DNA from: Gordius albopunctatus
Lineage: Eukaryota
DNA: 64,000 nt
Direction: 5' to 3'
Assembly (NCBI GenBank): GCA_964276515.1
Contig: OZ193910.1
Span: 1 to 64,000 of the forward strand
Under the pieces are notes generated by a model. That model was not told the DNA's origin. It ran no database searches and was given only the letters and a program-made list of their open reading frames with translations. A program made the position numbers and the translations under genes. Position 1 is the first letter of the stretch. Every line of letters starts with the position of its first letter. Shown in pieces: positions 9,540-63,339 of this stretch.

Positions 9540-10122
9540 CTCTTCTTTTTTATCAGTTATTTGGTCCCATATTGGTGGGATTTGTTTTGATAAGTTTCTT
9601 CGATCTTGACCGGGTGAGTGCCATGTTTTGACTAATCTCTTTAGTTTCCATAACCTTATCGACTTGCCCTTTACACGTGACACGGGGTCGTCCTCTTCCT
9701 CTCTTACCCGGTACCTCCATGTCCAGTATTTTTTGATTTACGTCATCCATATCCCTTCTTAGTATATGCCCATACCACCTTAGCCGATTTTCGCTAATCA
9801 TGTCCGCCATAGGTTGAATACCCATTTTTGTCATGAGAAAGTCATTCGTCATATGGTCGAGCTTAGTATACCCCAAGCTCTACCGTATCATTCTCATCTT
9901 TTTGGCCTGTAATAGCTTTAATTCCGTGGTGTTTAATGCCCATGTTTCACTTCCATAGAGTAACACCGGTCTTACGATGGATTTGTAAGCTTTGCTCTTC
10001 AACCATATTGTCATTTTCTTGTCGCACATTACACCGGATATACTTCGCCATTTAAGCCATCCTTTTTGGATCCGGGCATTGACTTCCGTTGCGCAACCTC
10101 CCTCGTAGCATCGAGCCGAGGT
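9540..10122 (-). mobile_element. 5'-truncated RTE-clade LINE copy
   Basis: Nearly identical to the 3' end of the 30771..33849 copy (RLRWYGHILRR...GKRGRGRPR), with a (GAA)-type tail. Confidence 0.95.
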
Positions 10123-12929: not shown

Positions 12930-14300
12930 GTAGCATCTCTATGCCCTACATGTAAGGGAAACATTTGTTTAAAGAAAAAAAAATTTTTTGTCCCATGGCC
13001 CATATCAGCTAAATGCCCTTCTTCTGGTAAGCTGGCTCCCCCAAACATAATATGTCCTCCTACAGCACTAGAAATTCAATATAATAATAATATTGACATT
13101 ATACCTAACTCTAATACATTCCCAGCTACCCCTAATAATGTTTATTACAGTGTTGAGCCTCTGGATTCAACATGGAGTAAAGTCCTTATCATCTCTAAAA
13201 TAATATGCAAAGCAATCAAGCATAATTTATCCCCATATCTAATGCCTCATCAGTTAGAACTCGGTGTTAAAGGGGGATGTGAAATAGCTACGCATGCTGC
13301 TAGATTGACCCTTGAAAATCTACCGCCCAGCGAGTCTTTTATAAAATTAGACTTTCAAAATGCCTTTAACAACCAAAATAGAAATTCTTTTATTAACAAT
13401 TTCATCGATGCTTTTCCCCAATATGTCAACTATATTCTTTTAAGTTATGACACCCCGTCTATTTTTAAATTTGGACAATTTTTGATTGATTGAGCTGAGG
13501 GCATTTAAGAGGGGACCCCCCTAACTTAACCTATCATTAAACGCGACAAAATGCGTTGACATTCTTTTATACGCCTTGAGAAGGACGAGTTATTTTTACT
13601 AGTTTCTGCAATAGGCTATCCTAAATGCTTAAGAAAGTTATCTCGATAATAACCTTAAAAATTTAAAATGTAAAAATAAAATTTTTAAGCTTATGCCCGC
13701 CCACCGCGCATTTTATATTTTGAAAAACTACTTTAATATAGCCAAAATATTATTTTGCTTCCGATCCACAAGCGAATTTTTGCATACACATATTTTACAT
13801 AATTTCGAAACCCACATGAAATCTGTCATCTAATCCACCCTGAACTTATCATTCGATACTAACACCTGGCTAAAAGCCACATTACCAACAAAATCTGGGT
13901 GTCTGGGTATTTGTTCACCAAGCTCCTTATCCTTGGCCTCATTTATATCGTCCCACTTATCCTCAAAATCCATCGTCGCCAAACTAATCTCATACTTCCT
14001 CGGTGAAACATTTATGCAGGCTCTATCCCTTTGGAATTTAAATGTTCCACCAGAGGGCTCACCACCACAAACACCAAATCAAAAGGATTGGGATGCATGT
14101 TTGGTTTCGCGCTCCGTTGCTTATCTCCTTTCGAGCTGCGACACCAAACATAATTACAACCTTAGATCTTTGGTGTTTGATAAATCTGGACATGAATGGC
14201 TAAAGGCTTTTCCTAGCAAGTTCTCCAATATGATGTTAGAGGATTGCGAGCTATCCTACAGAATTAATTCTATTATCGAGTCATCCCTTCTTAGAAAGGC
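12930..14300 (+). mobile_element. Degenerate, internally deleted CRE-like non-LTR retrotransposon
   Basis: N-terminal CPTCK...HGP...CPSSG zinc finger, RT motifs PHQLELGVKGGCE...KLDFQNAFN, and LPTKSGCLGI / QKDWD blocks; frameshifts and stops present. Confidence 0.8.
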
Positions 14301-14611
14301 ACAGAGAGAGCTTTGTTATATGTATAGCACAGCAAAATGTGCCGTATATTGCGCAGAACAGCGTATTGTTGACGATAGTAACCGACTAAGACCCCTTAGT
14401 AGATATCTATTGGCACACCCCAGTCTCTGTGACAAATTAATGTACTAATAGTTGGTTGGCATGGCACTACGACTACATTTTAGGTTATCAAAAATATTAT
14501 TATTTTAAGCACACCAAAATATTGTTTTGGCACAAGCCTCTAGTTTCTAGTTGATTTCACATGTTTTCTGCACATAATGTCTTGCGCATTTTAACTTCAT
14601 CTATATATTAG

Positions 14612-21965: not shown

Positions 21966-24900
21966 TCAGGTCGGAAACTGGCTATAAAAACCAACTCCAT
22001 AATCAGATAGTTTCAAACAAGATTTTACAAGGAAAGGCTAGGGCGTCCTCCACAAGCGACGCGCACTGCATACCCCGCCTGTGCAATGTGAAAAATACAC
22101 TAGGATTACTGCCTAACTCACAACGAAGGCGGTTAAGGAAACTAGTTAAAGAATACGCATTACGTGCTGGAATGTTGGAACGTTGACGGGGAAGAGCATC
22201 GAGGTCGCACAAATGCAGAAGAAAGGTACAGATCGTCTGTCTACAAGAGACGAAGTGGAACAGAACAAAAGCTCTAGAATTAGGAGAAGGATACAGGCTT
22301 TTCTACAGTGGGTTACCAAATCGTAGAAACGTGGTCGGTATCGTTCTAAGCGAATCATCCTAGGAAAAGGTGGTAAGTCAAGCGTTGTTCCGACAGGCTA
22401 ATGTAGGTGAAGATTGCAGATCAAGGGGGCCTTCTAACCGTTATGTGCGCGTATGCCCCCCCCCCCCAAATCGGATGTTTGGAATCAGAGAAAGACATAT
22501 TCTTCGATTTATTGGAAAAGGATATACAAGGAATAGGACAGGAAGAAAGGCTAATTATTGAGACAGATTTCAACGCTCACGTTAGAAAGATCGCCTCGGG
22601 TATGAACGCAATCATGGAGGCTATGAGCATGGTCTGAAGAACAAAGAAGGGAAAAAATTTCTCCAAGTATCCCAGGCATATGACATGGCGATCGTTAACA
22701 CCTATTTTCAAAAGCGCGAAGATAATATTGTGACCTATAGAAGTGGGAAGCATTTTAGTCAAATCGACTATTTGCTTATACGGCGAAAGGACTTATATAG
22801 CATAAAGGATTGCAAAGCAATACCGGGAGAAAAAATCGCCAGGCAACATCGTCCCCTTGTTATGGATCTTGGCAGAAGAGTATTTCCCGAAAGAAGAAAG
22901 GTCTATGAACCTCGGATTTGATACGAAAGGCTAAAGGATACGTCAACAAACAAAGAATACCAGCAAAAAGCCTGCTCACTTATGGGTGCAAGGAAGTTGC
23001 AAAGGGACATAGACGACGATTGGGAGACGATATCTAAGGTCATTAAGGAAACATCGATTCGTGTTCTAGGACAGACCAAAGGAGGCAAAGCTATGAATAG
23101 GGAACTATGGTGGTGTGATCAATCGGTTAAAGATTTCATCGAAAGAAAGATGTATATAGACGGTGGCATAAATCAAAAAACTCAGAGGATTATCAAGAGT
23201 ACAGGTAGGCAAAGAGGGCCGCAAAAAAGGCCGTTGCAAAAGCGAAGAATGCCGCAACTGGATCATAAAGGGGGAGGTAGGCTTATGTACCAATTGGCCA
23301 AGATAAGGGAGAAGAAAAGACGCGATGTCGGAGTTCTTAAAATAGTCAAAAGCGAGAAGGGTAAAACCTTATTCAAGCCGAAAGAAGTGACGGAAAGGAT
23401 ATTTTAAGAAACTTATGAATATAGCAAATGACAAGGATTCCCTTTCCGAAATTGATCCAAATATAAGTATGGTAAAACTCTTTCAGGAGGACAAAGTTAG
23501 GACACAAATGAACAATATGCAAAAAGGAAAAGCAAATGGCCCAGATGGAATACCTATGGAAGCATTGCTCGGATGTCGTGAAGATACAGTCACCACCATG
23601 ACGAACCTCTTTAACAAGATATTGGTAGAAGAGCGAATACCTAATCAATGGAGAGCAAGCACGATTATACCCTTATTTAAAGGCAAACTAGACCCTCAGG
23701 ACTGCGGAAATTACAGAGGTATTAAGCTAACCTGCCACTCTTTGAAGCTTATGGAAAGAATCTTAGTAACAAGGCTTTAAAACCAGGTGGAAATATCGGC
23801 TAATCAATTCGGATTCGTCGCCGGCAAATCCACAATCGACCCAATCTTCGCCCTAAGACAAATTATGGATAAGTATGGTGAAAAGAGGAAAGACCTACAT
23901 ATGGTTTTTATCCACTTGGAGAAAGCTTATGACACGGTCCCTCGCGATTTAATATGGTGGTGCCTGAGGAAACAAAATATCCCTGACGCATATATACGGC
24001 TTATGAAAAATATCTATGAAGCCTCAAACTCTTGCGTTACGACGACAGTTGGAGACTCTAAACCTTTTTGGGTTAATATTGGATTACATCAAGGCTCTGC
24101 TTTAAGTCCCTTTTTATTTAATACAATTATAGACACGATAACGAGGGACTTTCAAAAGCCATCGCCATGGTGTATGCTATATGCCGATGATATAATACTA
24201 TGCGAGAAAACAAAGGAGAAAGTATTCGAAGAAGCCGAAAAGTGGTCAAAGCGCTTAGCTGGATATGGGTTAAAGGTCAACGATTGAAAAACGGTATACA
24301 TGGAAATAAACGGTACAAGCACCCCATCGCTGGATGACCACCTAAAGTACCCAAAAGTAGACAGGTTTACTTACCTCGGCTCGATGCTACATCAAGAGGG
24401 AGGTTGCACAACGGAAGTCAATTCCCCGATCCATAAAGGAGCCGCTTAAATGACGAAGTATATCTGGTGTAATGTGCGACAAGAAAATGTCAATATGGTT
24501 CAAGAACAAAGCTTACAAATCCATCGTAAGACCTATGTTACTCTATGGAAGTGAAACATGGGCATTAAACACCACGGAAGGAAAGCTATTACAAGCCACA
24601 GAGATGAGAATGATACGGTGGAGCCTGGGGTATACTAAGCTCTACCATATGACGAATGACTTTCTCATGACAAAAATGGGTATTCAATCTATGGCGGACA
24701 TGATTAACGAAAATCTGCTAAGTTGGTATGGGCATATACTAAGGAGGGATACGGATAACGTAAATCGAAAAGTACTGGACATGGAGGTACCGGGGAATAT
24801 AGGAAGAGGACGACCCCGTGTCACGTGGAAAGGGCAAGTGGATAAAGTTATGGAAACTAAAGAGATTAGTCAAGACATGGCACTCACCCGGTCAAGATGG

Positions 24901-24966
24901 ATGAAACTTATCAAAACAAACCCCACCAATGGGGGACCAAATAACTGATAAAGAAGAAGAAGAAGA
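21914..24966 (+). mobile_element. Full-length but decayed RTE-clade LINE (APE + RT), intronic
   Basis: APE motifs (CWNVGTL, DFNAHV, SQIDYLL) and RT motifs (NYRGIKL, GLHQGSALSP, YADD) are spread over several frames; (GAA)n tail at ~24952-24966. Confidence 0.95.
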
Positions 24967-28679: not shown

Positions 28680-28845
28680 CCTACCCCCTTAATTGCAGTT
28701 TTTTGATATAAAGCCAAAATTTGTAAAATATCAGTTGATGTGTGATCCCTGCACAAGGTGAAAGGCTTTGAAGGAAAAATTATAAAGCAAGAGATAGTTT
28801 CATTATATAAATCCTAAAGTAAAACTTTGAAGCATTGAATATTGA

Positions 28846-30130
28846 TCGCTATGCAATTTATGGGCTCACTTTCCATTTTCCCAAGTAACGCACCGAAGTG
28901 TACCGCACCGTCATGTCACGGACCGAACGTGTCACGCACCAAATGTGTAACGCGACCGCATCTACACACGCTTAACGCTTTTGCCTCTCTAGATATGGGG
29001 TTCGATACCCGGAGCGGCCAAAAATTTTTTTATTTTTTAAATAAAATTAATTATTGTTCCTGTTAATAACATTGATAATATGGGTTAATGGCCGTGCTTA
29101 TGCCTCCCCAGATGTGAGGTTAAAATCACGGAGAGGCCAAAAACATTTTTTTAAATTAATATATTACTCTTGTTACTACCATTGATAATATGACTTTTTG
29201 GCCGTCCGCTGGCTGTTGACCAATGAAAAAATGACCATTGGCCAAATTGTGAAACAAAATTTTTTTTTCGTTTTTTTTGACTCTTATGTATTAATAGACT
29301 ACTCATGGTACGGACCAATGAAAAAAAATGACCATTGGCCAAAGTTTTAATCAATTTATTTTTCGTTGTTTTACTCTTATGTGTTTATATCAACTTTTAA
29401 CGTTACCTGGCTGCTGACCCATTGAAAAAATGACCACTGGCCAAAGTGTGAATCGAAATTTTTTTTCAGTTTTTTGGCTAACATTGATTTATAGACCATC
29501 TGTTGGTAGTCAACAATGGAAAAAAATGATCATTGGCCAAAATGTGAATCGAATTTTTTTTCGTTTTATTTGGCTAACATTGATTTATAGACGGTCTCTT
29601 GGTACTGATCAATGGAACAATTTAGCACATGTAAATTTTTTGAAATATTCTTATGATACCTTGACATTTTTAGATGCGCGGTCGTAACAGGGAATAGCGG
29701 AGCTATTGCATCGCTATTGTACACTTTAAATTTAATTTTTTTTTCATTACTCTCCATATATAATATGCCTATTCATTTCGCTTAGGAATTTATGGGTTTT
29801 ATGCGAATTTCCTTAACGCTAAGATTATCTAATCAATAAAGCCTTTCTAAGCACGTGACTAGGCACAATACTTCCATACATACATCCATATTATTTTAAT
29901 TGCAATACCTTTTGTCAGTTATATTAATTGTTATGCAATCATGACGATTCCTACATAAATTGCATAGCAAATAAGCTTTGTTTATAGGAAGTATAAAAGA
30001 GTAATCGATGTGTATAAGGATTTGAAGTAAAGATACGTGAAGCATGGACTGGCCTAAGCTAAACGGTGGTCTGGGGGCGGAGCATCCAGGTAACGGGGGT
30101 TTGGGGGCGAAGCCCCCAGTTACGCATTTT
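28846..30130 (+). mobile_element. Non-autonomous Helentron/DINE-1-like element (copy 1)
   Basis: Subterminal inverted repeats GCTATGCAATTTATG (28848) / CATAAATTGCATAGC (29954), short GCACCG-type repeats, central ~97-bp tandem repeats, and a 3' hairpin TGGGGGC-GAA-GCCCCCA (30102..30118). Confidence 0.65.
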
Positions 30131-30788: not shown

Positions 30789-33765
30789 TCAGTTATTTGG
30801 TCCCACATTGGTGGGGTTTGTTTTGATAAGTTTCTTCCATCTTGACCGGGTTAGTGCCATGTCTTGACGAATCTCTTTAATTTCCATAACTTTATCGACT
30901 TGCCTTTTCCACGTGACACGGGGTCGTCCTCTTCCTCTCTTCCCCGGTATTTTCATGTCTAGCACTTTTCGATTTACGTCATCCGGGTCCCTTCTTAGTA
31001 TATGCCCATACCACCTTAGCCGATTTTCGTTAATCATGTCCGCCATAGGTTGAATACCCATTTTTGTCATGAGAAAGTCATTCGTCATATGGTCGAGCTT
31101 AGTATACCCCAAGCTCCACCGTATCATTCTCATCTCCGTGGCTTGTAATAACTTTACTTCAGTGGTGTTTAATGCCCATGTTTCACTTCCATAGAGTAAC
31201 ACCGGTCTTACGATGGATTTGTAAGCTTTGCTCTTCAACCATATTGGCATTTTCTTGTCGCACATTACACCGGATATACTTCGCCATTTAAGCCATCCTT
31301 TTTGAATCCGGGCATTGATTTCAGTTGCGCAACCTCCCTCTTGATGTAGCATAGAGCCGAGGTAATTAAACCTGTCTACTTTTGGGTATTTTAGGTGATC
31401 ATCCAGCGATGGGGTGCTTGTACCGTTCATTTCCGTGTATACCGTTTTTCGATCGTTGACCTTTAAACCATATCCAGCTAAGCACTTTGACCACTTTTCT
31501 GCTTCTTCGAATACCTTCTCCCTTGTTTCCTCGCATAGTACTATATCATCGGCATATAGCATACACCATGGCGATAACTTTTGAAAGTCCCTCATTATCG
31601 TGTCTATAATTATATTAAATAAAAAGGGACTTAAAGCAGAGCCTTGATGTAATCCAATATTAACCCGAAAAGGTTTAGAGTCTCCAACTGTCGTCCTAAC
31701 GCAAGAGTTTGAGGCTTCATAGATATTTTTCATAAGCCGTATATATGCGTCAGGTATATTTTGTTTCCTCAGGCACCACCATATTAAATCGCGGGGGACC
31801 GTGTCATAAGCTTTCTCCAAGTCGATAAAAACCATATGTAGATCTTTCCTCTTTTCACCATACTTATCCATCATTTGTCTTAGGGCGAAGATTGGGTCGA
31901 TTGTGGATTTGCCGGCCACGAATCCGAATTGATTAGCCGATATTTTCACCTCTTTTCTCAGCCTTGTTACTAAGATCCTTTCCAAAAGCTTCAAGGAGTG
32001 GCAAGTTAGCTTGATACCTCTGTAATTGCCGCAGTCCTGAGGGTCTCCTTTCCCTTTGAATAAGGGTATAATCGTGCTTGCTCTCCATTGATTAGGGATT
32101 CGCTCTTCTACCAATATCTTGTTAAGGAGGTTCGTCATGATGATGACTCCTTCTTCACGACATCCGAGCAATGCTTCCATAGGTATTCCATCTGGGCCAT
32201 TTGCTTTTCCTTTTTGCATCTTGTTCATTTGTGTCCTAACTTCATCCTTCTGAAAGAGTTCGACCATACTTATATTTGGCTCAATTTCGGGAAGGGAATC
32301 CTTGTCATTTGCAATATTCATAAGTTTCTTAAAATATCCTTTCCACCTTTCCATCACTTCCTTCGGCTTGAATAAGGTTTGACCCTTCTCGCTTTTGACT
32401 ATTTTAAGAACTCCGACATCTCGACTTTTCTTCTCCCTTATCTTGGCCAATTTGTACATAAGCCTATCGCCCCCTTTATGATCCAGTTTGTTTGCCATCT
32501 CGGTGTACGCAGCATTCTTCGCTTTTGCAACGGCCTTTTTTGCGGACCTCTTTGCGTCCCTGTACTCTTGATAATCCTCCGACATTTTTGATTTATGCCA
32601 CCGTCTATATAGATTTTTCTTTATTTCGATGAAATCTTTAACCGATTGATCCCACCACCATAGTTCCCTATTCATAGCTTTGCCTCCTTTGGTCTGTCCT
32701 AGAACACGAATCGCTGTTTCCTTAATGTCCTTAGATAGCATTTCCCAATCTTCGTCTACGTCCCTTTGCAACTTCCTTGCACCCAAGAGTGAGGAGGCAT
32801 TTTGATGGTATTCTTCGTTCGCCGACGTATTCTTTAGCCTTTCGTATCGAATTCGAGGTTCATATACCTTTCTTCTTTCGGGAAATACTCTTCTGTCAAG
32901 ATCCATAACAAGGGGACGATGTTGCCTGGCGATTTCTTCTCCCGGTATTACTTTGCAATCTTTGATACTCCATAAGTCCTTTCGCCGTATAAGCAAATAG
33001 TCGATTTGACTAAAATGCTTCCCACTTCTATTGGTCACAATATGATCTTCGCGCTTTTGAAAATAGGTGTTAACGATCGCCATGTCATATGCTTGGGATA
33101 CTTGGAGAAGTTTTTCCCCTTCTTTGTTCTTCAGATCATGCCCATAGCCTCCATGATTGCGTTCATACCCGAGGCGATCTTTCCCAAACATTGAAATCGG
33201 CCCCAATAATTAGTCTTTCTTCCTGTCGGATTCCTTGTATTTCCTTTTTCAATGATTCGAAGAATATGTCTTTCTCTGATTCCGAACACCTAATTTGGGG
33301 AGAATACGCGCACATAACGGTTAGGAGGCCCCCTTGATCCGCAATCTTTACCCACATTAGCCTGTCGGAACAACGTTTGACTTCCACCAGCTTGTCCTTG
33401 AACGATTCGCTTAGAACGATACCGACCCCGTTTCTACGATTTGGTGACCCACTGTAGAAAAGCTTGTATCCTTCTCCTAATTCCCGAGCTTTCGTTCCGT
33501 TCCACCTCGTCTCTTGTAGGCAGGCGATGTGTACCTTTCTTCTTTTTAACATCTGTGCGACCTCGATGCTCTTCCCCGTCAACGTTCCCACATTCCAACA
33601 CGTAATTCGCATTCTTTCCACAACTAGTTTCCTTAACCGCCTTCGTTGTGAGTTGGGCAGTAACCCTAGTGTATTTTTCACATTGCACGGGCGGGGTATG
33701 CAGTGCGCGTCGTTTTTGGAGGACGCCCTAGCCTTTTCTTGTAAAATCTCGTTTGAAACTATCAT
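30789..33765 (-). pseudogene. RTE APE-RT polyprotein with a single frameshift
   Basis: GADFN(AH)VGKDRLG is disrupted relative to the plus-strand copy; the rest is open. Confidence 0.9.
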
Positions 33766-33805
33766 AAATTTTGGAGTTGATTTTTATAGCCGGTTTCCGA
33801 CCTGA

Positions 33806-41395: not shown

Positions 41396-42289
41396 GGAAA
41401 TTTTAAATGATATATAAAAGCCCCGCGGGCCGGGCTTGGACGGGCTTCTGCTTAAAAATAAAACAACGGGGCGGGCCTGGACGGGCCGATATATAATGTA
41501 ACAGACTCGCGCCGGGCCTAGTTATTCATAAGGCCCGTTAAAATCCCGTTAAAAAATTAATTAGATTTAGTATAAAAGAAGATATTTTTATAATTTTCTA
41601 ATTTGTAATTATTTTATGTATATATTAAATTAACGAGGAAAGTTAAATTTTGTTTCCATCCTAGTTCATTAATTCATCAATAGCTCAACCCGTATTATAA
41701 ATGTTAAAGGTAATTTATACACGTGATCCCATGGGCGGAGCCAATATAAATTAGAGGGGCGCAGTTTAAATAGGGCAAAAAATGTTCTTTTTATCAGGAA
41801 TTTTTGGATTTGGAGGTGTACAGCTGCCCATATTTGCCTCCCCATTTATACCCTCTAGCAATATTGAGTGAATTAATTTAATATTATTTAAAAATATTTT
41901 TTATTTAAATTGCTATGCAATTTATGGGCTCTCTTTTGGTTATCCGTCCTGCCCTGTCCAACTTGTAATTTTAGCAATAATTGCCGTGGAAACTTATACG
42001 GATTTTTAATGGGCCTGGACTTATGATTTTGTGAAAGACTTCTTTTATTTAGCTGACCGCTGATTGGCTTTACTGTTTTCGACCTCGCCCAAGCTCAAAT
42101 TCCATTATTGTTTTTGTGCCTGACTGATCACCCTTATTAATGAACTTATTTTGGCAATTTGTCTAGGTTGTTAATTTATAACGGATGATTGCGAAACTGG
42201 CTAAATAATTCCCTGCAAATTAATGCTCACCGTTGTTAACTTCTACTTTATCTGACCCCGGCCAAATGCCAAAATTTATATAGTCAAAG

Positions 42290-43059: not shown

Positions 43060-43940
43060 TTTTAATTGTTTAGTCTCATCAAGGTTTTTTTTATTCCACG
43101 TATGTTAATCTCTGAACCCCTATGCCCAACTTGTAAGCGACGAATATGCCTTGATAAACACAATTGTTTCTGGATTCATGGCCCAGTGTCTTCAAGATGC
43201 CCTTCTTCAGGCAAATTACCTCCACCCTGCTTACCAATTCCACCCATGGAGGCTCCCCTATTGCCAATCCCTAGCCCCGTCATCCCCCCATCCTTACAAT
43301 GCTCCCCATTAATTAATCAACCGCCTGACTCATTTTGGAGCAATTCTTTTTTAACAAATCAGTTTCCTAATACTATCTCTGGTATTCCAAGAGGAGTCAG
43401 AGCTTCCATCCAACAATCTCTGCTAAATATATTCACATCTATTATCAAAAACCTTTATAACTTAACTAATTGGGAAAACTTTTTAAATTCCCATATTATA
43501 TCTTTTATGTTAGGGAACCTAATAAACATAATTTATCAAATCTTATCAAGGAATCCCTTCTTTTAATACTGATGATCCCATTACTTGCACAAGTAAAACA
43601 AAACCCTTTCCACTGGACAATTAACCAAACAGCCAAGCACATTTCAAATAAAATCCATAATTTCAACCCAAAAAGTGCCCTTACAGCTTTTTATGATAAC
43701 AACTCAATTGCCCCTTGTTGCCCTGACTCTTATAGGGAGCTTAATCGAAAACACCCAGCAGCATCATCAGCCAGTAAATACCCCACATCTCCATCATCAA
43801 TAGTGCTCGAGTCTTCAGACATCCGTGAAGCCCTTAACTCCTTTCCTTTGGACTCCGCAGCCGGACTCGACGGATGGCGCCCAGTATATCTACAAGATTT
43901 ACTCAACTTAATACAAAGTTTTTTATTCTCCAAATAAAAT
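43060..43940 (+). mobile_element. 5' fragment of a CRE-like non-LTR element
   Basis: CPTCKRRICL...HGP...CPSSG zinc finger and the pre-RT motif LN.KHP...ALNSFP..SAAGLDGWRP. Confidence 0.8.
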
Positions 43941-50570: not shown

Positions 50571-51819
50571 TACTCATTCCTTTATATAACGATTATTAGG
50601 GATGTTGATTAATAAATGTAAGCTATAAAAGCACGGCAATGCTTCCTCATAAATCGTTTCAATTGGTTGTAGAGCCCCGGACGCATAAACTATTAACTTT
50701 CATTCTCATTGTTAAAGTTTTGCATCAAGCCTCTGAGGCGTTCATTACAGCCCCTACTTTTTTAACCCTAATTTTATCTATGCTAGCGCCAATGCTGTAA
50801 ATAAGTTTTTATCCCCCATTCGTTTATTGTATTTCCTGGCCTTCCCTAAATGCCATGTTTATCTTTAATTATTTTTCAAGGGCAATTCTTTTTAAAATCT
50901 TGTGAAATATTAATAAGAATTAATCCTTAAAATGAATGACTTCACGACGTTCTTGGTTATTAGTTGTTTCCACTCTCACATACCGGACTTAATTTCAGTA
51001 TGCCTTCCTTGCTATTTCTAAAACTTTAATTATATTATTAGCTCGGAAATTAATTTTGGTGGTGGACATAAAATTCATTTTTGCAGCGGTGCGTTTTTTT
51101 TCTTCGGTATCTCCTGCCACCAATATATAGACGATGTACGCTGCCACCCTCTAATCCTTCCAGGATTTGCTACATAATCTTTTATAAGATGGCAGCAGAG
51201 TAGTTAAGTCCGAAATGCATGGGCTTGACCTTAGTTATTCCTTTGTGTAGTGAATTTATAGGACACCGGCTCATTCATCGACATACCTTAAGTTGCATGT
51301 AGGCTTTAGCGAAATCTATTTTTTCAAACCAAAATTGTAAGACGAGTAAAATATAATAGATCATCGAGTTTTAAAACAATACTCGATTCATGGAAATATT
51401 TATTAATTGTAAAGCGATTTCTTAAAAAAATAAAAATACACAAAAAATTAAAGTGTACTTTTATTCACTTGCGGGGGGGGGGCAAAAATTGATTCTGCAA
51501 AAAAATGGGGTTTGTAAAGAATAAGAGGTAAACACAAATGGTATTTAATTTAGGCTTATGATTTAATATTTTTTTTACCCACAATTAAAAAAATTATAAT
51601 GATATTAATTGCTATGCAATTTATGGGCTCACTTTATATTTGTTTTAATTGCTATGCAATTTATGGGCTCGCTTTCCATTTTCCGAATGTCTTGTCACGC
51701 ACCGAATGTCACGCACCGAATGTCACGCACCGAATGTCTTGTTTAACTAGTTTTTGGGTTCGAAACCCGTGGATTTCTTTGACTATTATGATTGTTCCTG
51801 TTACTACCAATGCTTTTAA

Positions 51820-54560
51820 ACCTTTTTGGCGGTCCGCTGGCTGCTGACCGATGGAAAAAATGACTATTGCCCAAAATGTGAATCGAAATTATTTTTTTCG
51901 TTTTTTTTGGCTAACATTGACAATTACCCTATGCCCTCCCCTAACAGAGCCTATGCCTCTACTGATATGGGTCCCTGTGCCCCCCCCCTACATTATGCCT
52001 ATCCAGATCTGTGGTTCGATTTCCGTAGAGGCCAAAAAATTTAAAAAAATTTTTTTTATTTTTTTACCATTGATAATGTGACTTTTTGGCCGTCCGCTAG
52101 CTACTGACCACTGGAAAAAAATGACCATTGGCCAAAGTGTGAATCGAAATTTTTTTTCCGGTTTTTTTGACTCTTATGATTGTTCCTGTTAATAACATTG
52201 ATAATATGGCGTTTTGGTCCTCCGCTTGCTACTAACCAATGAAAAAAATGACCATTGGCCAAAGTGAACATCAAAAAATTTTTTTTCGTTTTTTTGGCTA
52301 ACATTGACTTATAGAGTATCTGTTGGTACTGACCAATGGAAAAAAATGATCATTGGCCAAAGTGTGGATCGAAATTTTTTGTTCGTTTGTTTTTGACTCG
52401 TATGTATTTATAGCCCGTCTCTTGGTACTGACCAATGGAAAAAATGACCATTGGCTAAATTGTGATTTAAAATTTTTTTTTCGTTTTTTTTGACTCGTAT
52501 GTATTTATAGATAGTCTCTCGGTACGGATCAATGGAAAAAAATGACCATTCGCCAAATTGTGATTCGAAATTTTTTTTTCGTTTTTTTGACTAGCATGTA
52601 TTTATAAACCGTCTCTTGGTAGTGACCAATGAAAAAGAATGAACATTGGCCATATTGCTTAAGTAAAGGCTAAAATTTCAAAATGCTCCTCCCAAAATAA
52701 TTATTTTCGTTTTTGAATAGATTAACGTTGATAATTACCCTATGCCCTCCCCTACAAGTGCCTATTTTTAGATTAAATTAATATTTTGTTCTTGTTGATA
52801 TTTGTTAAATTTTCTATAATATATTGATTTTCTATTATTGTTTCATTTTATTATATAATAAACATAAATAAAACACATCTTTATTATTTCATTATCTATA
52901 TAAATAACATAAAAACTTCTTTTATTTTAAATGGTAGCTTGGTAAGAGTGGTTATAGCAACGGCTTACTGACTTGGAGGTTGGGAATCGAGACCCGGAGA
53001 AACCATAATTTTTTTTTTAATTAAATTAATATTATGTTCTTGTTAATACCATGGATAATATGACTTTCTGACCTTCCGCTGGCTACTGACCAATTAAAAA
53101 AATGACCATTGTTCAAATAAATCGAAATTTTTCGTTTTTGAATAGGTTAACATTGATAAATTGCCCTATGCTCTCCCCTACAAGTGCCTATGCTTCTACT
53201 GATATGGGTCCCTGTGCTCCTACAAAGGCTTATGCATCTATTTAATGTGGTTTCGAATTCCGGCGAGGGCAATTTTTTTTTAATTAGATGGAAAATTTGT
53301 AGAAACATTTTGCATATAACGACCATAAATTGCATAGCAAATATGTTACGTTTATACGGAGTATAGATGAGTCGTCCCCCCTTCCCTTCCCCCCTTCCCT
53401 TCTCCCCTCCCCCTTCCCACGAGGGCCGAAGGCCCGAGTATGTCTTGCTACCGAATGTCTTGTCACGCTGTTTACTTTCATTATTAATTGCTATTATTAA
53501 TTTAACTAGTTTTTGGGTTCGAATCCCGGGTTTTTTTGACTCTTATGATTGTTCTTGTTACTACCATTGATAATAAGACTTTTTGGCCGTCCGTTGGATT
53601 TTGACCGATGAAAAAAATGACCATTGGCCAAAATGTGAGTCCAAGTTTTTTTTCGCTTTTTTTACTATTATGATTGTTCCTGTTACTATCAATGCTATTA
53701 TGACTTTTTGGCCGTCCGCTGACTGCTGACCGATGGAAAAATGACCATTGGCCAAATAAATCGAAATTATTTTTTCGTTGAATTGGGTAATAACATTGAT
53801 AATTACCCTATGCCCTCCACTATAAGGGCCTATGCCTCTACTGATATGGGTCCTTGTGCCCCTACAAAAGCCTATGCCTCTATTAATGTTGGATCGAATC
53901 CCGGCGAACGTTCTGAATTGCTTGTTGGAATCCCGGAGAGGCAAAATTTTTATTTTTTTTTAAATAAAATTAATATTTTGTTCTTGTTAATACCATTGAT
54001 AATATGAATTTTTGACCGTGCCCTGGCTACTGACCGATGATAAAAATGACCATTGGCCAAAATGTGAATCGAATTTTTTTTTTTTTTGAATTGGTTAACA
54101 TTGATAATTACCCTATGCCACCTGATATGGGTCCCTGTGCCCCTACAAAAGCCTATGGCTCTATTAATGTGGGTTCGAATCCCGCCTAACGTTCTGAATT
54201 GCTATTTCGAATCCCGGAGAAGCAAAATTTTTATTTTTTTTAATTAAATTAATTTATTGTTCTTGTTAATACCATTGATAATATGACTTTCTGACCGTGT
54301 TCTGGCTACTGACCAATGAAAAAAATGACCATTGGCCAAAATGTGAATCGAAAGTTTTTTTTCATTTTTTTTGACTCGTGTGTATTTATAGAACGTCTCT
54401 TGGTACTGACCAATGGAAAAAAATAACCATTGGCCAAACTGTGATTCGAAATTTTTTTTCGTTTTTTTGACTCGTATGTATTTATAGACCGTCTCTTGTT
54501 ACTTACCGATAAAAAAATGACCATTGGCCATATTATTTTTAAGTGAAGGCTAAAATTTCA
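51820..54560. repeat. Complex tandem array of ~97-130-bp hairpin units interleaved with tRNA B-box modules
   Basis: Recurrent TGACCAATGGAAAAAATGACCATTGGCCAAA.TGTGAATCGAAA units and CCTATGCCTCTA...GGGTTCGAATCCCGG modules. The same units occur at 29200-29620 and 58650-58860. Confidence 0.9.
52933..53005 (+). pseudogene. tRNA-derived (tRNA-like) sequence
   Basis: 73 nt with an A-box-like TGGTAAGAGTGG, a degenerate T-arm GGGAATCGAGACCC, a partial acceptor stem GGT..CT/AG..ACC, and a downstream T-run. Confidence 0.55.
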
Positions 54561-56303
54561 AAATGCTTCTCCCAAAACCATTATAAAATGCTGATTTTTA
54601 AAATTAGTGGGCAACTGCCCCCCCCTCTACCTCTCCTAGATATTCCCAGGCAAGGGGGTAAATTTTACCCCTGGCCGCCCTGGGAACCTACAGCTAAAAT
54701 TTGGATGCTTAATTAAGTAACAACACAAAATAATTTCTTAAATTCTTGTCCTTTAAATTATCACATAGAATTTCACAATATAAATATTGATTTTCTATTA
54801 TTGTTTCATTTTATTATATAATATATTAAAATCTTTTAAAAGGTCAAATAAATTTTTTAATAACCTCGTTTTTATATTTTGCATTATATTATCCGGAATT
54901 TTAAATAAAGCTTGTAGTAATTGTTTATCTACAAAATATTCAATTTTCTTTCCCGCTCAAACATTAATTTCCTTAGTAAAGGCCTAATCAATGATATTTA
55001 AAGATTATCTCACTTTTATATAATTATAATAATAATATTTAGCTCAATACTTTGGCAAATTTCGCCATTATTTTAATAAATTTTAGAAAATTTTTGGATT
55101 TAGAGGAAAACAGCCGCCCCTTTCTGTCTCCCTTAACTATACCCATCAATGAAATATAGGAAATTTACAACAAATGTTGAAATTTTAATAAAAAAATTGA
55201 TTTAATATCTATAAGAGTTCCAAAATCAATAAATTAACATCTCCCCTCCCTCCCTCCCTCCTTCCCCCCTATAAAATCAATGGTTTTCCAAGCACGGGTA
55301 ATATATCCTTGCATAGAGGTATGGGTGGGGGGTAGGGGGTTGCACGATATTTTCCATATCTTATTTATGGCGTTTGAATCAATAGAATTGGATAGCAATT
55401 AATAACCTCTCTCCCCTCCCCCTGTAAAATCCATACGTCATTATTGTATTAGGGGCAGGAGTGGAGGAGATGGAGAAAGGGAGAGAGAGAAGGGTTAGTA
55501 TTATTAATTTATGTGCTTTAAGATCAGCCGCTGTGGAAAAAAATAATAATAGCGTCGCACTTATAGGGATTGGAAATTTATTTTCGCCTAACTAACAGGG
55601 AAAGTAGAAAAATAAAGAATTAACTGTGAGAAACAAAATTATGTTATCTGATCTAAATAATTAATGTTAAAATTAAAATTTCCTATGAAGATTTAGGGTA
55701 AACCTTTACTGTTGCTCTTGATCTAGTCTAGGGACATTTTGAAAACAAGGATCCCCAAGTAGACTAAATTTATATCTTAATGTTGGTACAATTATGATAC
55801 TGCCATATAAATAAGCAACTTACACAACTCTCATGTATTATCTTCTTAACCTTCCATCAATTACCGTATCTCATCTCTGTAACACCAGTGTAGAATATAG
55901 AACGATGATCCGAAGTTTGCATCTCCAAAATATTTAAAGATCACCCTTTTGCCCATTTATAAAACTTTTGCCTCTCTCCTATTCAAAATCTTGGCTAGGC
56001 CCAATTTGATCACTGTTTTCAAAATTATTGATATAAAATCCAAAAATGTGTGATGTTCTTAAAGTCCTGTACGTCGCCCGAAGCCCGATCGGGATCGAGA
56101 GGGTTCCCCAAATATTTTATAATTTTTTTGCGGCCCCCCATTTTTTCATAATAATTTATATTTGTTAAATTATCTATAATATATTGATTTTCTATTATGG
56201 TTTCATTTTATTATATAATAAAAAAACACAACTTTATTATTTCATTATCTATATAAATAACAAAAACTTCTACCATTCAAAAAATTATTTTCATTATTTA
56301 AAT

Positions 56304-56377
56304 ACCAGCAGGGTGTGAGTGGTTAAAGCGAACGGCTTGTAAACAGGAGGCAACGAGTTAGAATCCCAGAGAGGACA
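56304..56377 (+). pseudogene. Second tRNA-like copy abutting the RT element
   Basis: GTGTGAGTGGTTAAAGC...CGGCTTGTAA...GGAGG...GAGTTAGAATCCC, with the same ~130-bp AT-rich upstream flank as the 52933 copy. Confidence 0.5.
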
Positions 56378-56553
56378 AAAATGCGATATATGTATATCAA
56401 AAATATGGTAGAATTATTCACGCGAGAAATTAACACACCGACGAGGGGCAAGGGTTCAGTAAGCGCCGAGTGGGGAAACGATGAAGAGTAAAAGAGGGGT
56501 GCTGAATTATACTATGTTTCTTAGACTCTTTTACGGTATTCCAGTTTTGCAAA

Positions 56554-58473
56554 CTAGTTGGTGTTCTGGCCGTGTGTGAAGTTCGAGCGTGTCCAATGGA
56601 TTATGTTGCCCAGTTGGAAGTCGTCGAAAAAGCTTTCGCGGGAGGGTGCATCGGCTGGATTGTTGTCCGTTGAGACCCATTCCAGGTTCTGCTTGATTTT
56701 GATCATGTTGTCCAAGCCCATTACCTCGCATATCTTGGTGAACGCGTACTCCAGGTGTGGTGCGTGTGCACTGCCCTTCTTTATGATGTAGAACGCGGTA
56801 CGAGAATCCGTCAAGATCTTGGGGTTGAGGTGTGGAGTGTCTACTGCTGCTTTGATGAAGGCCAAGGGTATGGCAACCAGCTCGAGTAGGTTGATGGTGG
56901 GGATGAGGTCGTGAACTGCGAAGATGGCAAGCGCATCACTTTTGGCAATAGAGAGGACGGAGCCTCTGTAAAAAATACCAATATGTGTGAGTGAAGCATC
57001 TCCAGCAGTGAACCCGTTCGTGTCGTAGCGCATGCGGAAAGGTGTTGAGAGGTGTCGTTGGACCATGAGAATTTTTCGGACAACCCATTCTGTCCGGAAT
57101 TCGATAGGGTCAGTGGCTAGTAACATGTTGTAGGCTGGGGAAATGAATTTCGACCATCCCGTGAGTATGTAAACGTAGTGTGTGAGAATGCCCAAACATG
57201 TCTGAGTTACTAGCGGGTGTGGCTTGACACCTTCCATGAGGAAGTGGTTGAGGATCTGCGTGGCTGCATCGATCTTTTTAACGAATTTAGAGTTGATTTT
57301 GAGTGTACGAGTTTCCAAGTCCACGTGGATACCTAAATAATCCATCCTAGTGCGTGGAACCAGGCATGATTTGGCCTTGTTGATAGTCAGATTCCAACAT
57401 TTGGCTAGGTATAAGAACCTTCTAGTATCAGCCAACACCAGGGTGGAGGATGAGCCATAGATCAGAATATCATCTAAGTAAACATTGTATTTGGATTTTG
57501 TAATCGCCTTCTTGCATAAGTCCAGCATGATTTGTTGGAGGACGAATGGGGAGAAGCTTGCTCCCATTGGTAGTACTTTGTAAGCGTACTTACGTCTCCG
57601 ATATCGAAAACCAAAGAATTTAGCAACATCCGGAGCCAGGGGAATCGAAAAGAAAGCTGCTTTCATGTCAATTTTCGTCATGAATTTGGCTTCGGAGAGT
57701 GATGATGCGATAAGTGGGATAGATTTAAGTGAAAAAGGGTATTTCACAAAGTTTTTGGAAATCTGGGAGAGGTCCGCGATGAGACGGGGGGAACCATCAC
57801 TTTTAGGGATAAAGTACATGGGTGATGGAATAGTCCCCGGATTCTCCCTGACGATATTGGACAGTATGATTTCGTCCACAAGCGGTTTGTGTTCGCGAGG
57901 GATTGCTTTGACGTATCGGGGGATGTGATACCGACCATAATTATTGACAATGGCCTTGCGAGACAATTTTGGTTTAAATCCAAACTTTGCTACCCGTAAT
58001 GTGAAGGGGCTTTGCTTCCAGTGTGGTCTTAGAATGGAAGTACGGATGGAAAGTGGTTGGTCAAAATTGACGAATGAGGATAACGGATGAGTTGGGAATA
58101 GGGGAATATTGGACGGCTCGCTGATGATTGGTGGGCCTTCGCCATCCAGACCCACCTCCGTCCATTGTGATGAGAGTAGTCCCGGCACATTGGTATGCTC
58201 AGGTAGCGACGTGCTAAAAGGGTGTGGCAACTCTTCTAGCTCCGGGCCATCGTCGGGAGAGATGGAGTTGATAGCGATGCTCCTGGCAATGGCAGTATAA
58301 TTTATGAGCCATGTTGGAGCATTTCCATCCCTCACCGACCTCGGCGGGTTAACACCACTGCCGAGGGTCGCCGCTACCGTCCTAACATAATTACGTTCTC
58401 TCCGCCCGAGGCGGAGGCGGCCCTTTGGGTTTAGGGCCTTTCTTCCTTTGACCATATCTCGTGTCAGGCGCAC
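56554..58473 (-). CDS. Intact RT-RNase H polymerase, hepadnavirus-like/DIRS-related
   Basis: 639-codon ORF (first ATG at 58455). RT motifs FIPKSDGSPRLIADLSQISK, KIDMKAAFFSIPL, LPMGASFSPFVL, YLDD, INKAKS, YLGI; RNase H motifs GDAS, INLLELVA, LTDS, NPADAPSR. Confidence 0.92.
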   Translation of the reverse strand: MRLTRDMVKGRKALNPKGRLRLGRRERNYVRTVAATLGSGVNPPRSVRDGNAPTWLINYTAIARSIAINSISPDDGPELEELPHPFSTSLPEHTNVPGLLSSQWTEVGLDGEGPPIISEPSNIPLFPTHPLSSFVNFDQPLSIRTSILRPHWKQSPFTLRVAKFGFKPKLSRKAIVNNYGRYHIPRYVKAIPREHKPLVDEIILSNIVRENPGTIPSPMYFIPKSDGSPRLIADLSQISKNFVKYPFSLKSIPLIASSLSEAKFMTKIDMKAAFFSIPLAPDVAKFFGFRYRRRKYAYKVLPMGASFSPFVLQQIMLDLCKKAITKSKYNVYLDDILIYGSSSTLVLADTRRFLYLAKCWNLTINKAKSCLVPRTRMDYLGIHVDLETRTLKINSKFVKKIDAATQILNHFLMEGVKPHPLVTQTCLGILTHYVYILTGWSKFISPAYNMLLATDPIEFRTEWVVRKILMVQRHLSTPFRMRYDTNGFTAGDASLTHIGIFYRGSVLSIAKSDALAIFAVHDLIPTINLLELVAIPLAFIKAAVDTPHLNPKILTDSRTAFYIIKKGSAHAPHLEYAFTKICEVMGLDNMIKIKQNLEWVSTDNNPADAPSRESFFDDFQLGNIIHWTRSNFTHGQNTN

Positions 58474-58649
58474 GAAAAAGCTGAACAGGCTCGGTGTATT
58501 GGCCCATTCCCATCTTTTCTGCCCAGTCTTTTGATTTACCGGTTACTGCCTGCCATCCATAGTATGAGGCCATGGCCAGCGTCCTGACTCGGTCAGAAAA
58601 TTTATCTACCGTTTTGTTGAAGTCTTCGATTGATTCCCCCATGCTGAGT
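58391..58649 (-). CDS. Gag/core-like ORF, probably 5'-truncated, overlapping the pol ORF
   Basis: MGESIEDFNKTVDKFSDRVRTLAMASYYGW...RYGQRKKGPKPKGPPPPRAERT (ATG at 58642). It overlaps pol in another frame; sequence above 58650 belongs to the tandem repeat. Confidence 0.6.
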
Positions 58650-61600
58650 GCCGTCCGCTGGGTACTAATCAATGAAAAAAAGACCATTGGCCGCATTATG
58701 AATCTAAATTTTTTTTCGTTTTTGAATAGGTTAACATTAATAATTACCTTAAGCCCTCCCCTACAAGGGCGTATGCCTCTACTGATATGGGTCCCTGTGC
58801 CCCTATAAAGGCTTATGCTTCTACTGATGTGGGTTCGAATCCCGGAGAGGGCATTTTTTTAATTAAATTGAAAATTTGTATAAATAATTAACTAATAATT
58901 TTGCATTTAATACCCCCCTATAGGCATTCTCGCGCCTTTCCACCTTTCTCGCCCATAAATTGCATAGAAAATATGCTACGTTTATACGCAGTATAGATGA
59001 GTCGTTTGCCCTTCCCTTCCCCCCTCCCCCTTCTCACGAGGGCCGAAGGCCCAAGTTTATATTTTTGCATAGGCCAGGGGTCAATAAGAGCTCACAGTCA
59101 CAACCATTGCCAGCAGTAGTAGTAGAAGTAGTAGTAGTAGGAAGAGTGTGACCCACCAACTTGCCGAAAACCAAATTCAATGTCCCATGGTTAAAAAATG
59201 TTCACCAATTAGAAAATTTAGCAGACCAAAAAGGGCTATTAATCATTCGATTTCAAATTTAAGTTGAAATTAAGGTTTTAATGTCCCAAGTAAATTCGGC
59301 AAGATGGTTTTCGGTGAAATGATATAGGACACCCTAGACTTTAATTCATAATACTAAAAAAAAGGAGGTTGACCTCAGGTCAGAGGCAATTTTTAATTTA
59401 ATAATTAATTGTGCTAGGATTAAAATTATTTTTTTTAATTTATTTATCTCCCCTTTATTTACAAATCCAATCTATTAAATCGAATTTTAACCGATTAATT
59501 TGCAGTTAATAACTTTTTTAAAACGCCAAAATCAATGTTTTTGGCAACTTAGCCATTAAATATTATTTCGTTAACTTGCTTATAAGGAAAACTAAAAATA
59601 TTTATCTTCGCCGTAAAAGATTGTAGCAGAATCTACATATTATATTTATCATCGAATTTATTGTTTTAAGTTGAGGTTAGGGTAATAAAGTTTAGGCGAA
59701 TTGGTTTTGAATTATACAGAGCCATACTTGCGATCAGAATGAATCTGACAGATTAGATGAATGGTCATGGGCGTAGCCAGGGCCCCTAAATGAAGAAAAA
59801 AAATTTCAATGCAGGAACCCTTAAAAATTACAAAAAAATAGATTTTGCCCCCCCCCCCCTGATTGAACTTTTAAGCGTTTCGCGCTGCCCCCGCCCCCTA
59901 AAAAAAGCGCACAAATTATACCAATAATAACGATTCATTCCATGTGTATATCAATGTAATGTGTTTAGCTTAAACGTGTTATTTATAATTGGATTTTTCT
60001 TAAATATACTGATAGTTTTAAATTGTATAAAGATTACTCTAATCTATTTTGATTTAAGGCCGTTTGTGCCCTATTTATAATTAATAAGATTTCAGAACCA
60101 CTTAAATATTTTAAAATCCGCTACAGAGCTTATTTGTCCGCCCACAGCAGACCCATTTAAATTATCTATTTAAAAACCAGCCCCGTGCCCGTGCTTATTT
60201 ATAATTCGGTTTACATTTTGAATAGGGGCTAATTTAAATGGATTAAAAATTGTGGGATAAATGAACAGTTGACCTTAAAGCATATACTATTTTATATAAT
60301 CCATTCATACAAAAGATAGACAAAAAAGACCTGCATACAATATATTTGCATATACTTTTGTGTTAAGCTAAAGGGTTATAAAAGGTACGAAGGTGAAAAC
60401 TATTTTTGTCAAATATTGAAACTTTTTCTTATATTTATAACTAAATATAAATATTCATGATGGTATTTTGCAAGGTTGATAAAATCTACATGAAAATATT
60501 TGCCAATGAATTTATATCAGTTGCCCTATTTGAAAGCCCATATGAAGGAATATTGCAGGGTTATATATATCTTCGTGATATTTTTGAAGATGTCTCCCTA
60601 AATTTGACAAACTATTTGTTTGACAAACTTATTATTCTGACCCCCATAATCATGCATATAGAGCCGGACCAGATTAAAATTGAGGCCATCCAAGGTACTA
60701 TCAATATATTTTAACTTCAATGTTTAATAGGAGTTTGCGTCAAATTTAACCAAGATAATAGAATTCTCAAATTTTCCATTTCTATGCTTTTTATTATTGT
60801 GGCAATATGTGTTTTACTTGGAGCGCTTTACATTCAAGTTAAAGGTATTTAAAATTATTGATATTTTTAGGGAAGAATGTTTATTTGTGTCATAACTTGT
60901 TATACTTAAAAACACTTACCTTTTTAATGTAATTTATCTTTAGTATTATTACATAATATACTCATAGAATATTAAATTCAATAGAATCGGTAAATAAATA
61001 AGTATTGCAGAAAAATTTATTACGTGTCATCAGGCTTTTGAGCGAGGTCATAATAGAGGGCGCGAATACATTTTTAACCATATTATAAACTTCAATATAA
61101 AGATGTTCTATAGTGTTTCCATCTCATTTCGTCTCAATGTCGAGAGCAAAATCTTATCTCTTCTCGGCTGAGATTATGAAAATCACGATATTATCTTATC
61201 GGAAATATTATTTTAACTTCTCTTGACTTTTAAAAAAATTAAACTGAATAAATATTTCTCCTCTTTTATTGATATTATAAGTGTTATGGAAAGTTTAATA
61301 GCATTTATAATCATGAGAAGCATTAATACACAAAAATTATAAATATTTAGCGCAACATCTCAATAATAATATAAAGATATGAACTAATATAACATTTTAT
61401 ATTAAAAATGAAAATTAAAAAACTATAAATTTGAAATAAAGACCATTTAATATTATATTTCTAGCAAATTATAACATTTGTGTCTGTCAAATATAAATAG
61501 ACTTAGAAAATATACTCTAATATTTACTTAATTACATATTTGGGCAAATTGTGACCCTTTATTGGCTAAAGCCTCAAAGTAGACCTTAACATATTTAAGG

Positions 61601-62031: not shown

Positions 62032-62879
62032 AATGTAATATTTGTATTAACGAAAGATACATCGTATTATTATATTGTTATGTTCGGTATTCCTAGTGCA
62101 TACAATTTGTATATTGAACATATGACCTAATTTGAATAAACATTTAAATTGAGTACGCTATATTCTGACGCGACCGACAGGATCTAAGAAGATCATGGAA
62201 TCTATTCCTAGCTACAACCCTTCAGATAAGATAGAATCATATTTGTTCACATTAGATCATATATTCAAAGCTAGGAACATTACGGATCTAAATAAAAAAG
62301 CAAACACACTGATTCTGGCATATATGGGCCAAAGCAATATTGAAAAGATTAGATCTTATTTATATCCTAAGGATATTACCATCCTCACCTATAAGGAATT
62401 AATTGATGCAATCAAGAAAGTTTTTCAAATTAAAAGAACAATATTCAAAAACAGGTTAAATTTTATAAGATGTATTAAACAGGAGGGAGAAGAAATAAAG
62501 GACTATGCTAATAGACTTAAGACAATAGCAGAAGAATGTAATTTTGCTACTAACCTAGATGAACATCTCAGGCACCAGATGTTACACAGGATCCAAAACA
62601 AAACAGATTCCAATGGCAATACAATAACATTTGAAGAGATATACAAGATAGCTGAAGCCATGGAGTTGGCCAAGAAAGAAGTCATAACTTACGAAATTGA
62701 TGCTATAAATCCAAGGTATAAGCCAAAAACTAAACAACAACATTATGGGAAACAACAACATCACAATTGTTCTAGGTGTGGCAAACATCATGAACCAAAG
62801 AAATTCTCAGCGTTTTACAAACTATGTTTTATCTGTCAGAAAAAGGGTCATTTTTCAAAATTCTGCCACACAAGAAATG
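62032..62879 (+). mobile_element. Ty3/Gypsy 5' fragment: LTR end, PBS and gag
   Basis: PBS-like TG(A/G)CGCGACCGACAGGAT at ~62166. Gag ORF 62195..62890 has Q.EGE.I.DY..RL...A..CNF and two zinc knuckles (CSRCG..H, CFICQKKGHFSKFC). Confidence 0.85.
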
Positions 62880-63339
62880 TATTGTCTTAAGTCTATTAGC
62901 ATAGTCCTTTATTTCTTCTCCCTCCTGTTTAATACATCTTATAAAATTTAACCTGTTTTTGAATATTGTTCTTTTAATTTGAAAAACTTTCTTGATTGCA
63001 TCAATTAATTCCTTATAGGTGAGGATGGTAATATCCTTAGGATATAAATAAGATCTAATCTTTTCAATATTGCTTTGGCCCATATATGCCAGAATCAGTG
63101 TGTTTGCTTTTTTATTTAGATCCGTAATGTTCCTAGCTTTGAATATATTATCTAATGTGAACAAATATGATTCTATCTTATCTGAAGGGTTTAAGCTAGG
63201 AATAGATTCCATGATCTTCTTAGATCCTGTCGGTCGCGCCAGAATATAGCGTACTCAATTTAAAAGTTTATTCAAAATAGTTTATATGTCCCATATACAA
63301 ATTGTATGCACTATCTTTCGTTAATACAAATATTACATT
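62880..63339 (-). repeat. Inverted duplicate of the Gypsy LTR end, PBS and gag 5' half
   Basis: Reverse complement of ~62032..62527. ORF 62829..63212 repeats the gag N-terminus with two amino-acid changes. Confidence 0.92.

Follow-up and report, generated by a model that had tools for sequence, protein, structure and literature searches.

A reverse transcriptase segment of likely HEART-like type nested within a Helentron-like repeat of a horsehair worm: cargo or chance insertion?

Introduction

Can a retroelement without an integrase travel through a genome as the cargo of a rolling-circle transposon, or does it only happen to lie inside one? The question is raised by the first 64,000 nucleotides of contig OZ193910.1 (assembly GCA_964276515.1) of Gordius albopunctatus, the whole of which is referred to here as the window. 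The window (about 30% GC) is a subtelomeric stretch of an animal genome, of which positions 1-2750 form a (CCCTAA)n telomere array at the chromosome end. Within it, a reverse transcriptase (RT) segment is embedded in a repeat resembling the non-autonomous Helentrons known as HINE/DINE-1. The original prediction, made from the sequence alone, described an integrase-less RT segment inside such a rolling-circle-type element, a description that our analysis supports, and read the pair either as captured cargo or as preferential insertion into the repeat. We favor a different origin, with a probability of roughly 0.6: about 60 bp of a host repeat unit were replaced, during a one-off double-strand-break repair, by 2.3 kb of a retroelement that encodes RT and RNase H but no integrase and is likely HEART-like, and rolling-circle carriage did not bring it there.

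Results

The RT segment replaces a linker within one repeat unit

The RT segment occupies 56382..58649 (minus strand; 2,268 bp, junctions uncertain by about one base) and has a GC content of 48%, versus about 30% around it. On its left, the host sequence ends at the tail GGACAAAAA of an A/B-box-like, or "tRNA-like", module (56272..56381, plus strand) that is homologous to 52921-53007 of a neighbouring copy of the host repeat, copy A. On its right, the host resumes at GCCGTCC and the same repeat unit continues (58650..58900, plus strand; 85% to its homolog 53072-53320 in copy A). The predicted contacts, with GCCGTCCGCTG at 58650 and with the module end at 56381, are thus both present, except that GCCGTCCGCTG belongs to the central repeat unit and not, as had been assumed, to the terminal hairpin.

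Copy A (51600..53442) and copy B (53443..59060), both on the plus strand, align in seven colinear blocks, among them 52795-52920 of A with 56155-56271 of B before the RT segment and 53072-53439 of A with 58651-59056 of B after it, and the RT segment is absent from A. Copy A therefore represents an empty paralogue, in comparison with which the RT segment has replaced a single linker of about 60 bp. In all five intact units checked, the module end is separated from a G/ACC(G/T)T motif by 50, 57, 63, 66 or 68 bp, and it is this 50-68 bp linker that is missing at the RT site. Hence, the two repeat-made junctions noted originally do exist, but they are consecutive points of one and the same unit, which argues for one insertion replacing about 60 bp and not for independent contacts.

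No direct word of six or more bases is shared by the 141-bp windows around both junctions, confirming the predicted lack of a target-site duplication, and homology at the junctions amounts to at most one base. No terminal direct or inverted repeats were found at the ends of the segment, nor any structured RNA at either end (z 0.49 and 0.22). As for the module, its resemblance to a tRNA holds at the level of box-like motifs, whereas tRNA identity was rejected: ARAGORN predicts 0 genes in the window, Rfam returns no tRNA match at E ≤ 5 (its 6 matches at this threshold are all far below gathering scores), and the module folds no better than shuffled sequences (z 0.64 and -0.18).

The host repeat has a HINE/DINE-1-like anatomy

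Three copies of the host repeat lie in the window (28840-30010, copy A and copy B), amounting to 10.8% of it with the telomere and the RT segment left out of the count. The repeat is non-coding, has T-rich ends, and contains left subterminal inverted repeats (subTIRs) at 51606, 51646 and 28846, GTCACGC microsatellite units at 51694, 51708, 51722, 53462 and 28931, central tandem repeats (repeat families D1-D9), right subTIRs at 53323 and 58951, and a hairpin, GGGCCGAAGGCCC, that closes copies A (53423) and B (59040) after the right subTIR. Copy A has subTIRs pairing at 20 of 21 positions together with its hairpin. Copy B retains a microsatellite remnant, the central tandem repeats, a right subTIR (58951..58973, plus strand) that is 91% complementary over 23 nt to 51606-51628 and 51646-51668, and the 3' hairpin (59040..59052, plus strand); these last two elements lie 301 and 390 bp past the right RT junction, as had been predicted. 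Judged by these sequence features, the anatomy is that of a HINE/DINE-1-like repeat with longer subTIRs.

Position 53440, the proposed start of the element, did not hold: the interval 51666-59060 is free of left subTIRs, and so is copy B's own range, the nearest being those at 51606 and 51646. Instead, copy B starts inside the microsatellite, immediately after the 3' end of copy A. The presence of two left subTIRs 40 bp apart and of two right ends (53442 and 59060) suggests that copy A is nested within the left end of copy B, or that the two form a tandem pair. Copy B also contains a second extra stretch (54585..56154, no strand assigned; 1,570 bp) without any frame above 70 codons, where copy A has about 90 bp. 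This stretch is mosaic in structure: a piece at about 55060-55106 is high-copy and recurs at 7555-7604 and 41799-41842.

Elsewhere in the window, lone left subTIRs of the same family are found at 41908 and 47720, each followed by unrelated sequence, and perhaps represent other subfamilies. Toward an autonomous Helentron partner, the window shows only a Pif1 helicase 2B fragment (PF21530, E 1e-5) at 6897-7295 (plus strand), a possible Helitron/Helentron remnant.

The segment encodes an unbroken RT-RNase H frame and a probably truncated upstream frame

A six-frame reading of the segment yields a single frame exceeding 134 codons, the RT-RNase H frame (56554..58542, minus strand), which is unbroken over 662 codons and encodes 632 aa from its first ATG at 58452. 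It contains a disordered N-terminal region of about 125 aa, an RT domain (YLDD) and an RNase H-like domain (motifs DAS, LLE, TDS and NPADAPSR), with the stop 27 aa later, and all catalytic acids are present. Its sole Pfam match at E ≤ 1 is RVT_1 (E 9.8e-23); it contains no methyltransferase, integrase or recombinase domain, and the terminal protein family PF00242 has no match in it. The AlphaFold2 model has a mean pLDDT of 75, with the first 125 residues disordered and residues 26-126 below 50. No tyrosine recombinase frame occurs in the six frames of this copy, which may be truncated, and no split repeats occur within 170 bp past the RT stop.

Overlapping the start of the RT frame, an upstream frame of 85 aa (58391..58648, minus strand) remains open up to the junction and is likely cut there. 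It is predicted to form a helix followed by a basic proline-rich tail, and is modelled as a single helix (pTM 0.34); no homologs were found among 181 stored proteins, 32 candidates or Pfam, the best Atlas match being 0.77. Because this frame runs into the junction, the inserted RT substrate was presumably cut at least on its 5' side, and the 5' genes of the element are likely missing.

The RT family is placed near hepadnavirus-like RNase H proteins

Only 4 proteins among 1.84 billion representatives reach E 1e-30, the best three being Gordionus proteins with 38-44% identity. The only close relatives, all from the horsehair worm Gordionus (XP_065317776.1, XP_065315139.1, CAK9296137/8.1 and LOC135924076; 36-44% identity), are annotated as uncharacterised, and the three that reach the RNase H comprise RT-RNase H only. 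A FastTree phylogeny (189 columns) was built from 221 of 243 proteins, namely those aligning over at least 125 RT residues. In it, the window protein joins five Gordionus proteins in one clade (support 1.0), and this clade falls within a group containing 15 further proteins (0.898), separate from Gypsy and the methyltransferase-bearing DIRS proteins. These neighbours are methyltransferase-less RT-RNase H proteins; among ten looked up, one is a damselfly protein and the others are unnamed or "hypothetical". The hepadnaviral polymerase C-terminal family PF00336 is detected at E ≤ 0.05 in 7 of the 15 (4 pass the cut-off), versus 3 of 35 DIRS controls. In a smaller set of 39 proteins, the RNase H tree joins the family with 12 of 13 neighbours (0.915), and a tree from both domains together joins it with 11 of the 13 (0.816). 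The neighbours in these trees are proxy proteins, with no authentic HEART, VIPER or viral sequence among the proteins aligned.

Motifs and length agree with this grouping. D[FLY]S, LP[MQ]G and [SA]P[FYW].[LM]Q are present in all six family members and in 4, 4 and 0 of 35 DIRS controls, respectively; the excerpted supplements of PMC12691608 display the same RT motif pattern in their hepadna- and nackednavirus rows. An NPAD.PSR motif occurs in three of the six. After the last RNase H motif, 11-90 aa remain in four family members, versus at least 149 in 16 DIRS proteins. The window protein is 22-27% identical to the aligned tree neighbours, and hhalign scores of 422 against neighbours and 363 against DIRS proteins are partly circular, as the neighbours were chosen from the RT tree. 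In structural searches, the best named TM-scores by query length are with HBV P (0.49, 0.47); the top Foldseek match, A0A3S9H6R8 (634 aa, TM 0.54), is unnamed and comes from a viral-only library, which cannot weigh DIRS against HEART. By sequence and modelled fold, this integrase-less RT is likely HEART-like and a candidate member of HEART.

Gypsy/Ty3 elements, which provide the best PDB sequence matches, were rejected, as the segment has no protease, integrase or long terminal repeat (LTR) and Gypsy forms a separate clade in the tree. More broadly, the LTRs, integrase and 3-6 bp duplication of LTR elements, including Troyka/Kuafuortervirus (features taken from excerpts of PMC12440569 and PMC11673190), are absent here. 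The RT protein has no relatives among viral contigs (3 pattern matches) or metagenome contigs (155 pattern matches), and "Gordi-" and "Nematomorph-" have 0 occurrences in ten supplements of PMC12691608. Separately, seven unnamed metagenomic RT-RNase H proteins (P0116, P0063, P0109, P0146, P0035, P0148 and P0040; contigs of 1.4-9.6 kb) carry hepadnaviral-type RNase H without a methyltransferase and possibly represent unrecognised HEART-like diversity.

The strongest competitor to our reading, in our judgement still unlikely, is the one-off nesting of a truncated tyrosine-recombinase (YR) retrotransposon, with a VIPER-like order of gag, YR and RT/RNase H (RH) or of the PAT/Ngaro type, whose recombinase and terminal repeats were left behind when it inserted. 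The cut upstream frame and the missing 5' genes would suit such an element, the best Atlas feature matches (0.97, 0.96) are to clusters without a name in which the few members with a label come from Euglenozoa, and the family aligns with DIRS proteins, too, over both RT and RNase H (the hhalign score of 363). However, all 6 family members show the hepadna-like RT motif pattern and none of the 6 that of DIRS, the short C-terminal tails contain no methyltransferase, the 85-aa frame has no Pfam match, and the 170 bp past the stop are free of split repeats.

The window copy looks single-locus in a diverged, multi-copy family

Seven public sequencing runs contain the stretch or part of it, two of them with about half of its words; contigs were compared from four, the small-share runs X3, X5 and X7 being left out, and contig depth, summed or not, is not equated with copy number. 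In X2, two contigs match the RT segment exactly (330 and 584 nt, 0 differences) at depths of 174.8 and 167.9, next to 175.8 for a contig that runs from the 3' end of copy B into unique flank. In X1, exact RT pieces have depths of 444-651 versus 391 for the flank (1.1-1.7x). Eight other listed RT contigs from X1 and X2 differ from the window at 9-14% of letters, and organism B also carries related sequence. Thus, the window RT copy looks single-locus and the RT family is multi-copy and diverged; nothing in the listed public contigs indicates that the composite has been copied.

Summed depth along the RT segment ranges from 1.5 to 80x the flank in X2, with peaks near both ends. At 58042-58524 and 56432-56592, summed contig depth is far above that of the RT middle, as internally deleted derivatives would give. 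Part of the second extra stretch, 55724-55919, is represented in X2 by one contig with 5 differences from the window and a depth of 867, about 5x the flank; it looks multi-copy. A further host-RT contact, 59065 to 58307, connects a 3' end of the host to an interior part of RT-family sequence and thus differs from the contact in the window; it is weak, with one contig each in X1 and X2 and 31 letters on the short side. Joints of 54530 to about 58705 reflect repeat units alone and were rejected as empty alleles.

These data bear on an alternative that we rate as improbable, and below the tyrosine-recombinase one, in which an RT captured ancestrally by a HINE-like repeat was spread by rolling-circle transposition, the copies that are 86-91% alike being older members. 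In its favor, the RT lies between intact cis ends, the second extra stretch looks multi-copy, so that enlarged versions of the region may travel, depth is level across the left junction in organism A, and sequence capture by Helitron-class elements is described in the excerpts of PMC4067079 and PMC7492417. Yet no near-identical second copy occurs among the listed contigs, the summed RT depth is very uneven, unlike that of copies of one unit, the sole other host-RT contact observed is made at a different junction, and copy B lacks its own left subTIR (the nearest are 51606 and 51646), with an internal 3' end at 53442.

Other elements in the window

A long interspersed nuclear element (LINE), presumably of RTE type, lies at 30789-33783 (minus strand), with an unbroken frame of 806 codons and an adjoining endonuclease-like frame of 206 codons; a decayed paralogue is found on the other strand (22586-24948, plus), and a further fragment at 9553-9879. 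Decayed frames at 12846-14448 and 43066-43937 resemble another non-LTR retrotransposon (weak RVT_1, E 0.11). At 62153-62890 and 62829-63254, a frame resembling Gag and containing a zinc knuckle (PNMA, E 4e-5) occurs as a tandem duplication.

Discussion

Nesting alone is ordinary, unlike the RT family. The segment encodes no integrating enzyme, its ends are ragged, and it has removed a small part of the target without duplicating any of it, a combination that fits end-joining capture at a break. As substrate we propose either linear cDNA or part of the element, truncated on the 5' side at the least, which end-joining with 0-1 base of homology would have joined at the break. Excerpts of PMC6071206 report that hepadnaviral linear DNA at breaks gives low-homology junctions and truncated ends. 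The host repeat may have been hit simply because it is abundant: with 10.8% of the window made up by it, one or more chance nestings are expected for a family of tens of copies, and assuming 40 copies and a genome-wide share of 3-11%, the expectation is 1-4. Cargo and accident are distinguished by repetition, of which none is seen for this copy. Neither cargo nor preferential insertion, as originally proposed, is supported so far: the locus presents a single insertion with a target deletion, the exact RT contigs have about the depth of unique flank, and a repeat forming about 11% of the window makes some chance nesting expected. They remain minority readings, and a one-off insertion is likelier. 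In principle, the composite could be mobilised in trans, with the left subTIR at 51606 and the hairpin at 59040 as its two ends; nothing seen shows movement.

Several observations pull away from this conclusion. At a single locus, a repair junction and filler-DNA capture by a rolling-circle element look alike, and with the RT frame unbroken over 662 codons, the insertion may be too young for copying to have occurred. In organism A, summed depth is similar to the left and right of the left junction (44,610/41,704 in X1; 7,796/7,003 in X2), as a shared junction would give; in organism B, however, depth is high in the module but not at the RT end (69,326 versus 189), so that the host repeat alone can supply such level depth. 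Of 1,713 loose ends and 121 joints, 24 and 15, respectively, were listed, and none of these falls at 56381 or 58650, a neutral outcome. The assembly itself may derive from X1 or X2. Regarding placement, RT alone leaves the family's position unresolved in the 39-protein tree, PF00336 has no match in the window protein or in the three Gordionus proteins scanned (3/3), PF00242 has none in the window family, and the family has DAS where Blubervirales have DATP. Moreover, VIPER/TATE elements end in RT/RH and, according to the excerpts of PMC6681497, their RNase H also groups with that of hepadnaviruses, a point in favor of the tyrosine-recombinase alternative.

A broader proposal, that a hepadnavirus-related integrase-less family of horsehair-worm-like animals spreads inside non-autonomous Helentrons and that its diverged copies share junctions, strikes us as doubtful, about on a par with ancestral capture. 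Some retrotransposons prefer RNA polymerase III genes. That this retroelement targets the 3' end of the A/B-box-like module, where the left junction exactly lies, is nevertheless very improbable, given that the segment has no integrase, endonuclease or recombinase, that a 50-68 bp loss without duplication is unlike an enzyme-made targeted insertion, that the module is unrecognised as a tRNA, and that the element is absent from all 5 intact units listed.

The value of the locus lies in the combination of an unbroken RT frame, a multi-copy family, Gordionus relatives and an insertion target that can be read from a neighbouring empty repeat. According to the excerpts of PMC12440569, HEART mobilisation is unresolved, and the samples are few and often mutated at conserved RT residues. 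No title in the literature consulted concerns this RT family or a Helentron-moved RT element, and the intact integrase-less RT family is apparently undescribed, though such elements may already be included in the original HEART description. Should the placement hold, a count of junctions over the whole family would show how integrase-less relatives of hepadnaviral polymerases enter chromosomes; if copies do share Helentron junctions, this would constitute a new mobilisation route for HEART-type elements.

Comparison with known systems

As described in the excerpts of PMC4067079 and PMC7492417, HINE/DINE-1 elements share with the host repeat a non-coding sequence, subTIRs, a microsatellite after the left end, central tandem repeats, a 3' stem-loop, T-rich surroundings and clustered copies. 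The subTIRs differ in size and position: in the host repeat they measure about 21 bp and lie some 70-80 bp away from the hairpin, versus 12-15 bp and 38-60 bp from the end in mite HINEs.

For the RT segment, elements of the DIRS order (VIPER/TATE, PAT, Ngaro and DIRS1; excerpts of PMC6681497) offer a related RT-RNase H, an overlapping upstream frame and the lack of a DDE integrase, whereas the window copy is without recombinase, methyltransferase, and inverted or split repeats. Blubervirales polymerases (hepadna-, nackedna- and proto-nackednaviruses) likewise combine RT and RNase H without protease or integrase and share the D[FL]S and PMG...SPF.LQ motifs and a basic-tailed frame overlapping the polymerase start; by contrast, the window RT has no terminal protein, belongs to a diverged multi-copy chromosomal family, and has upstream only an 85-aa fragment without homolog. 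HEART (excerpts of PMC12691608, PMC12440569 and PMC11551314), an invertebrate genomic RT with hepadnavirus-like motifs, resembles the window RT in these respects, and the nearest tree neighbours include the damselfly protein and proteins with hepadnaviral-type RNase H. In this comparison, made without authentic HEART sequence, the window RT stands apart in having DAS instead of DATP in its RNase H, and its closest relatives are nematomorph.

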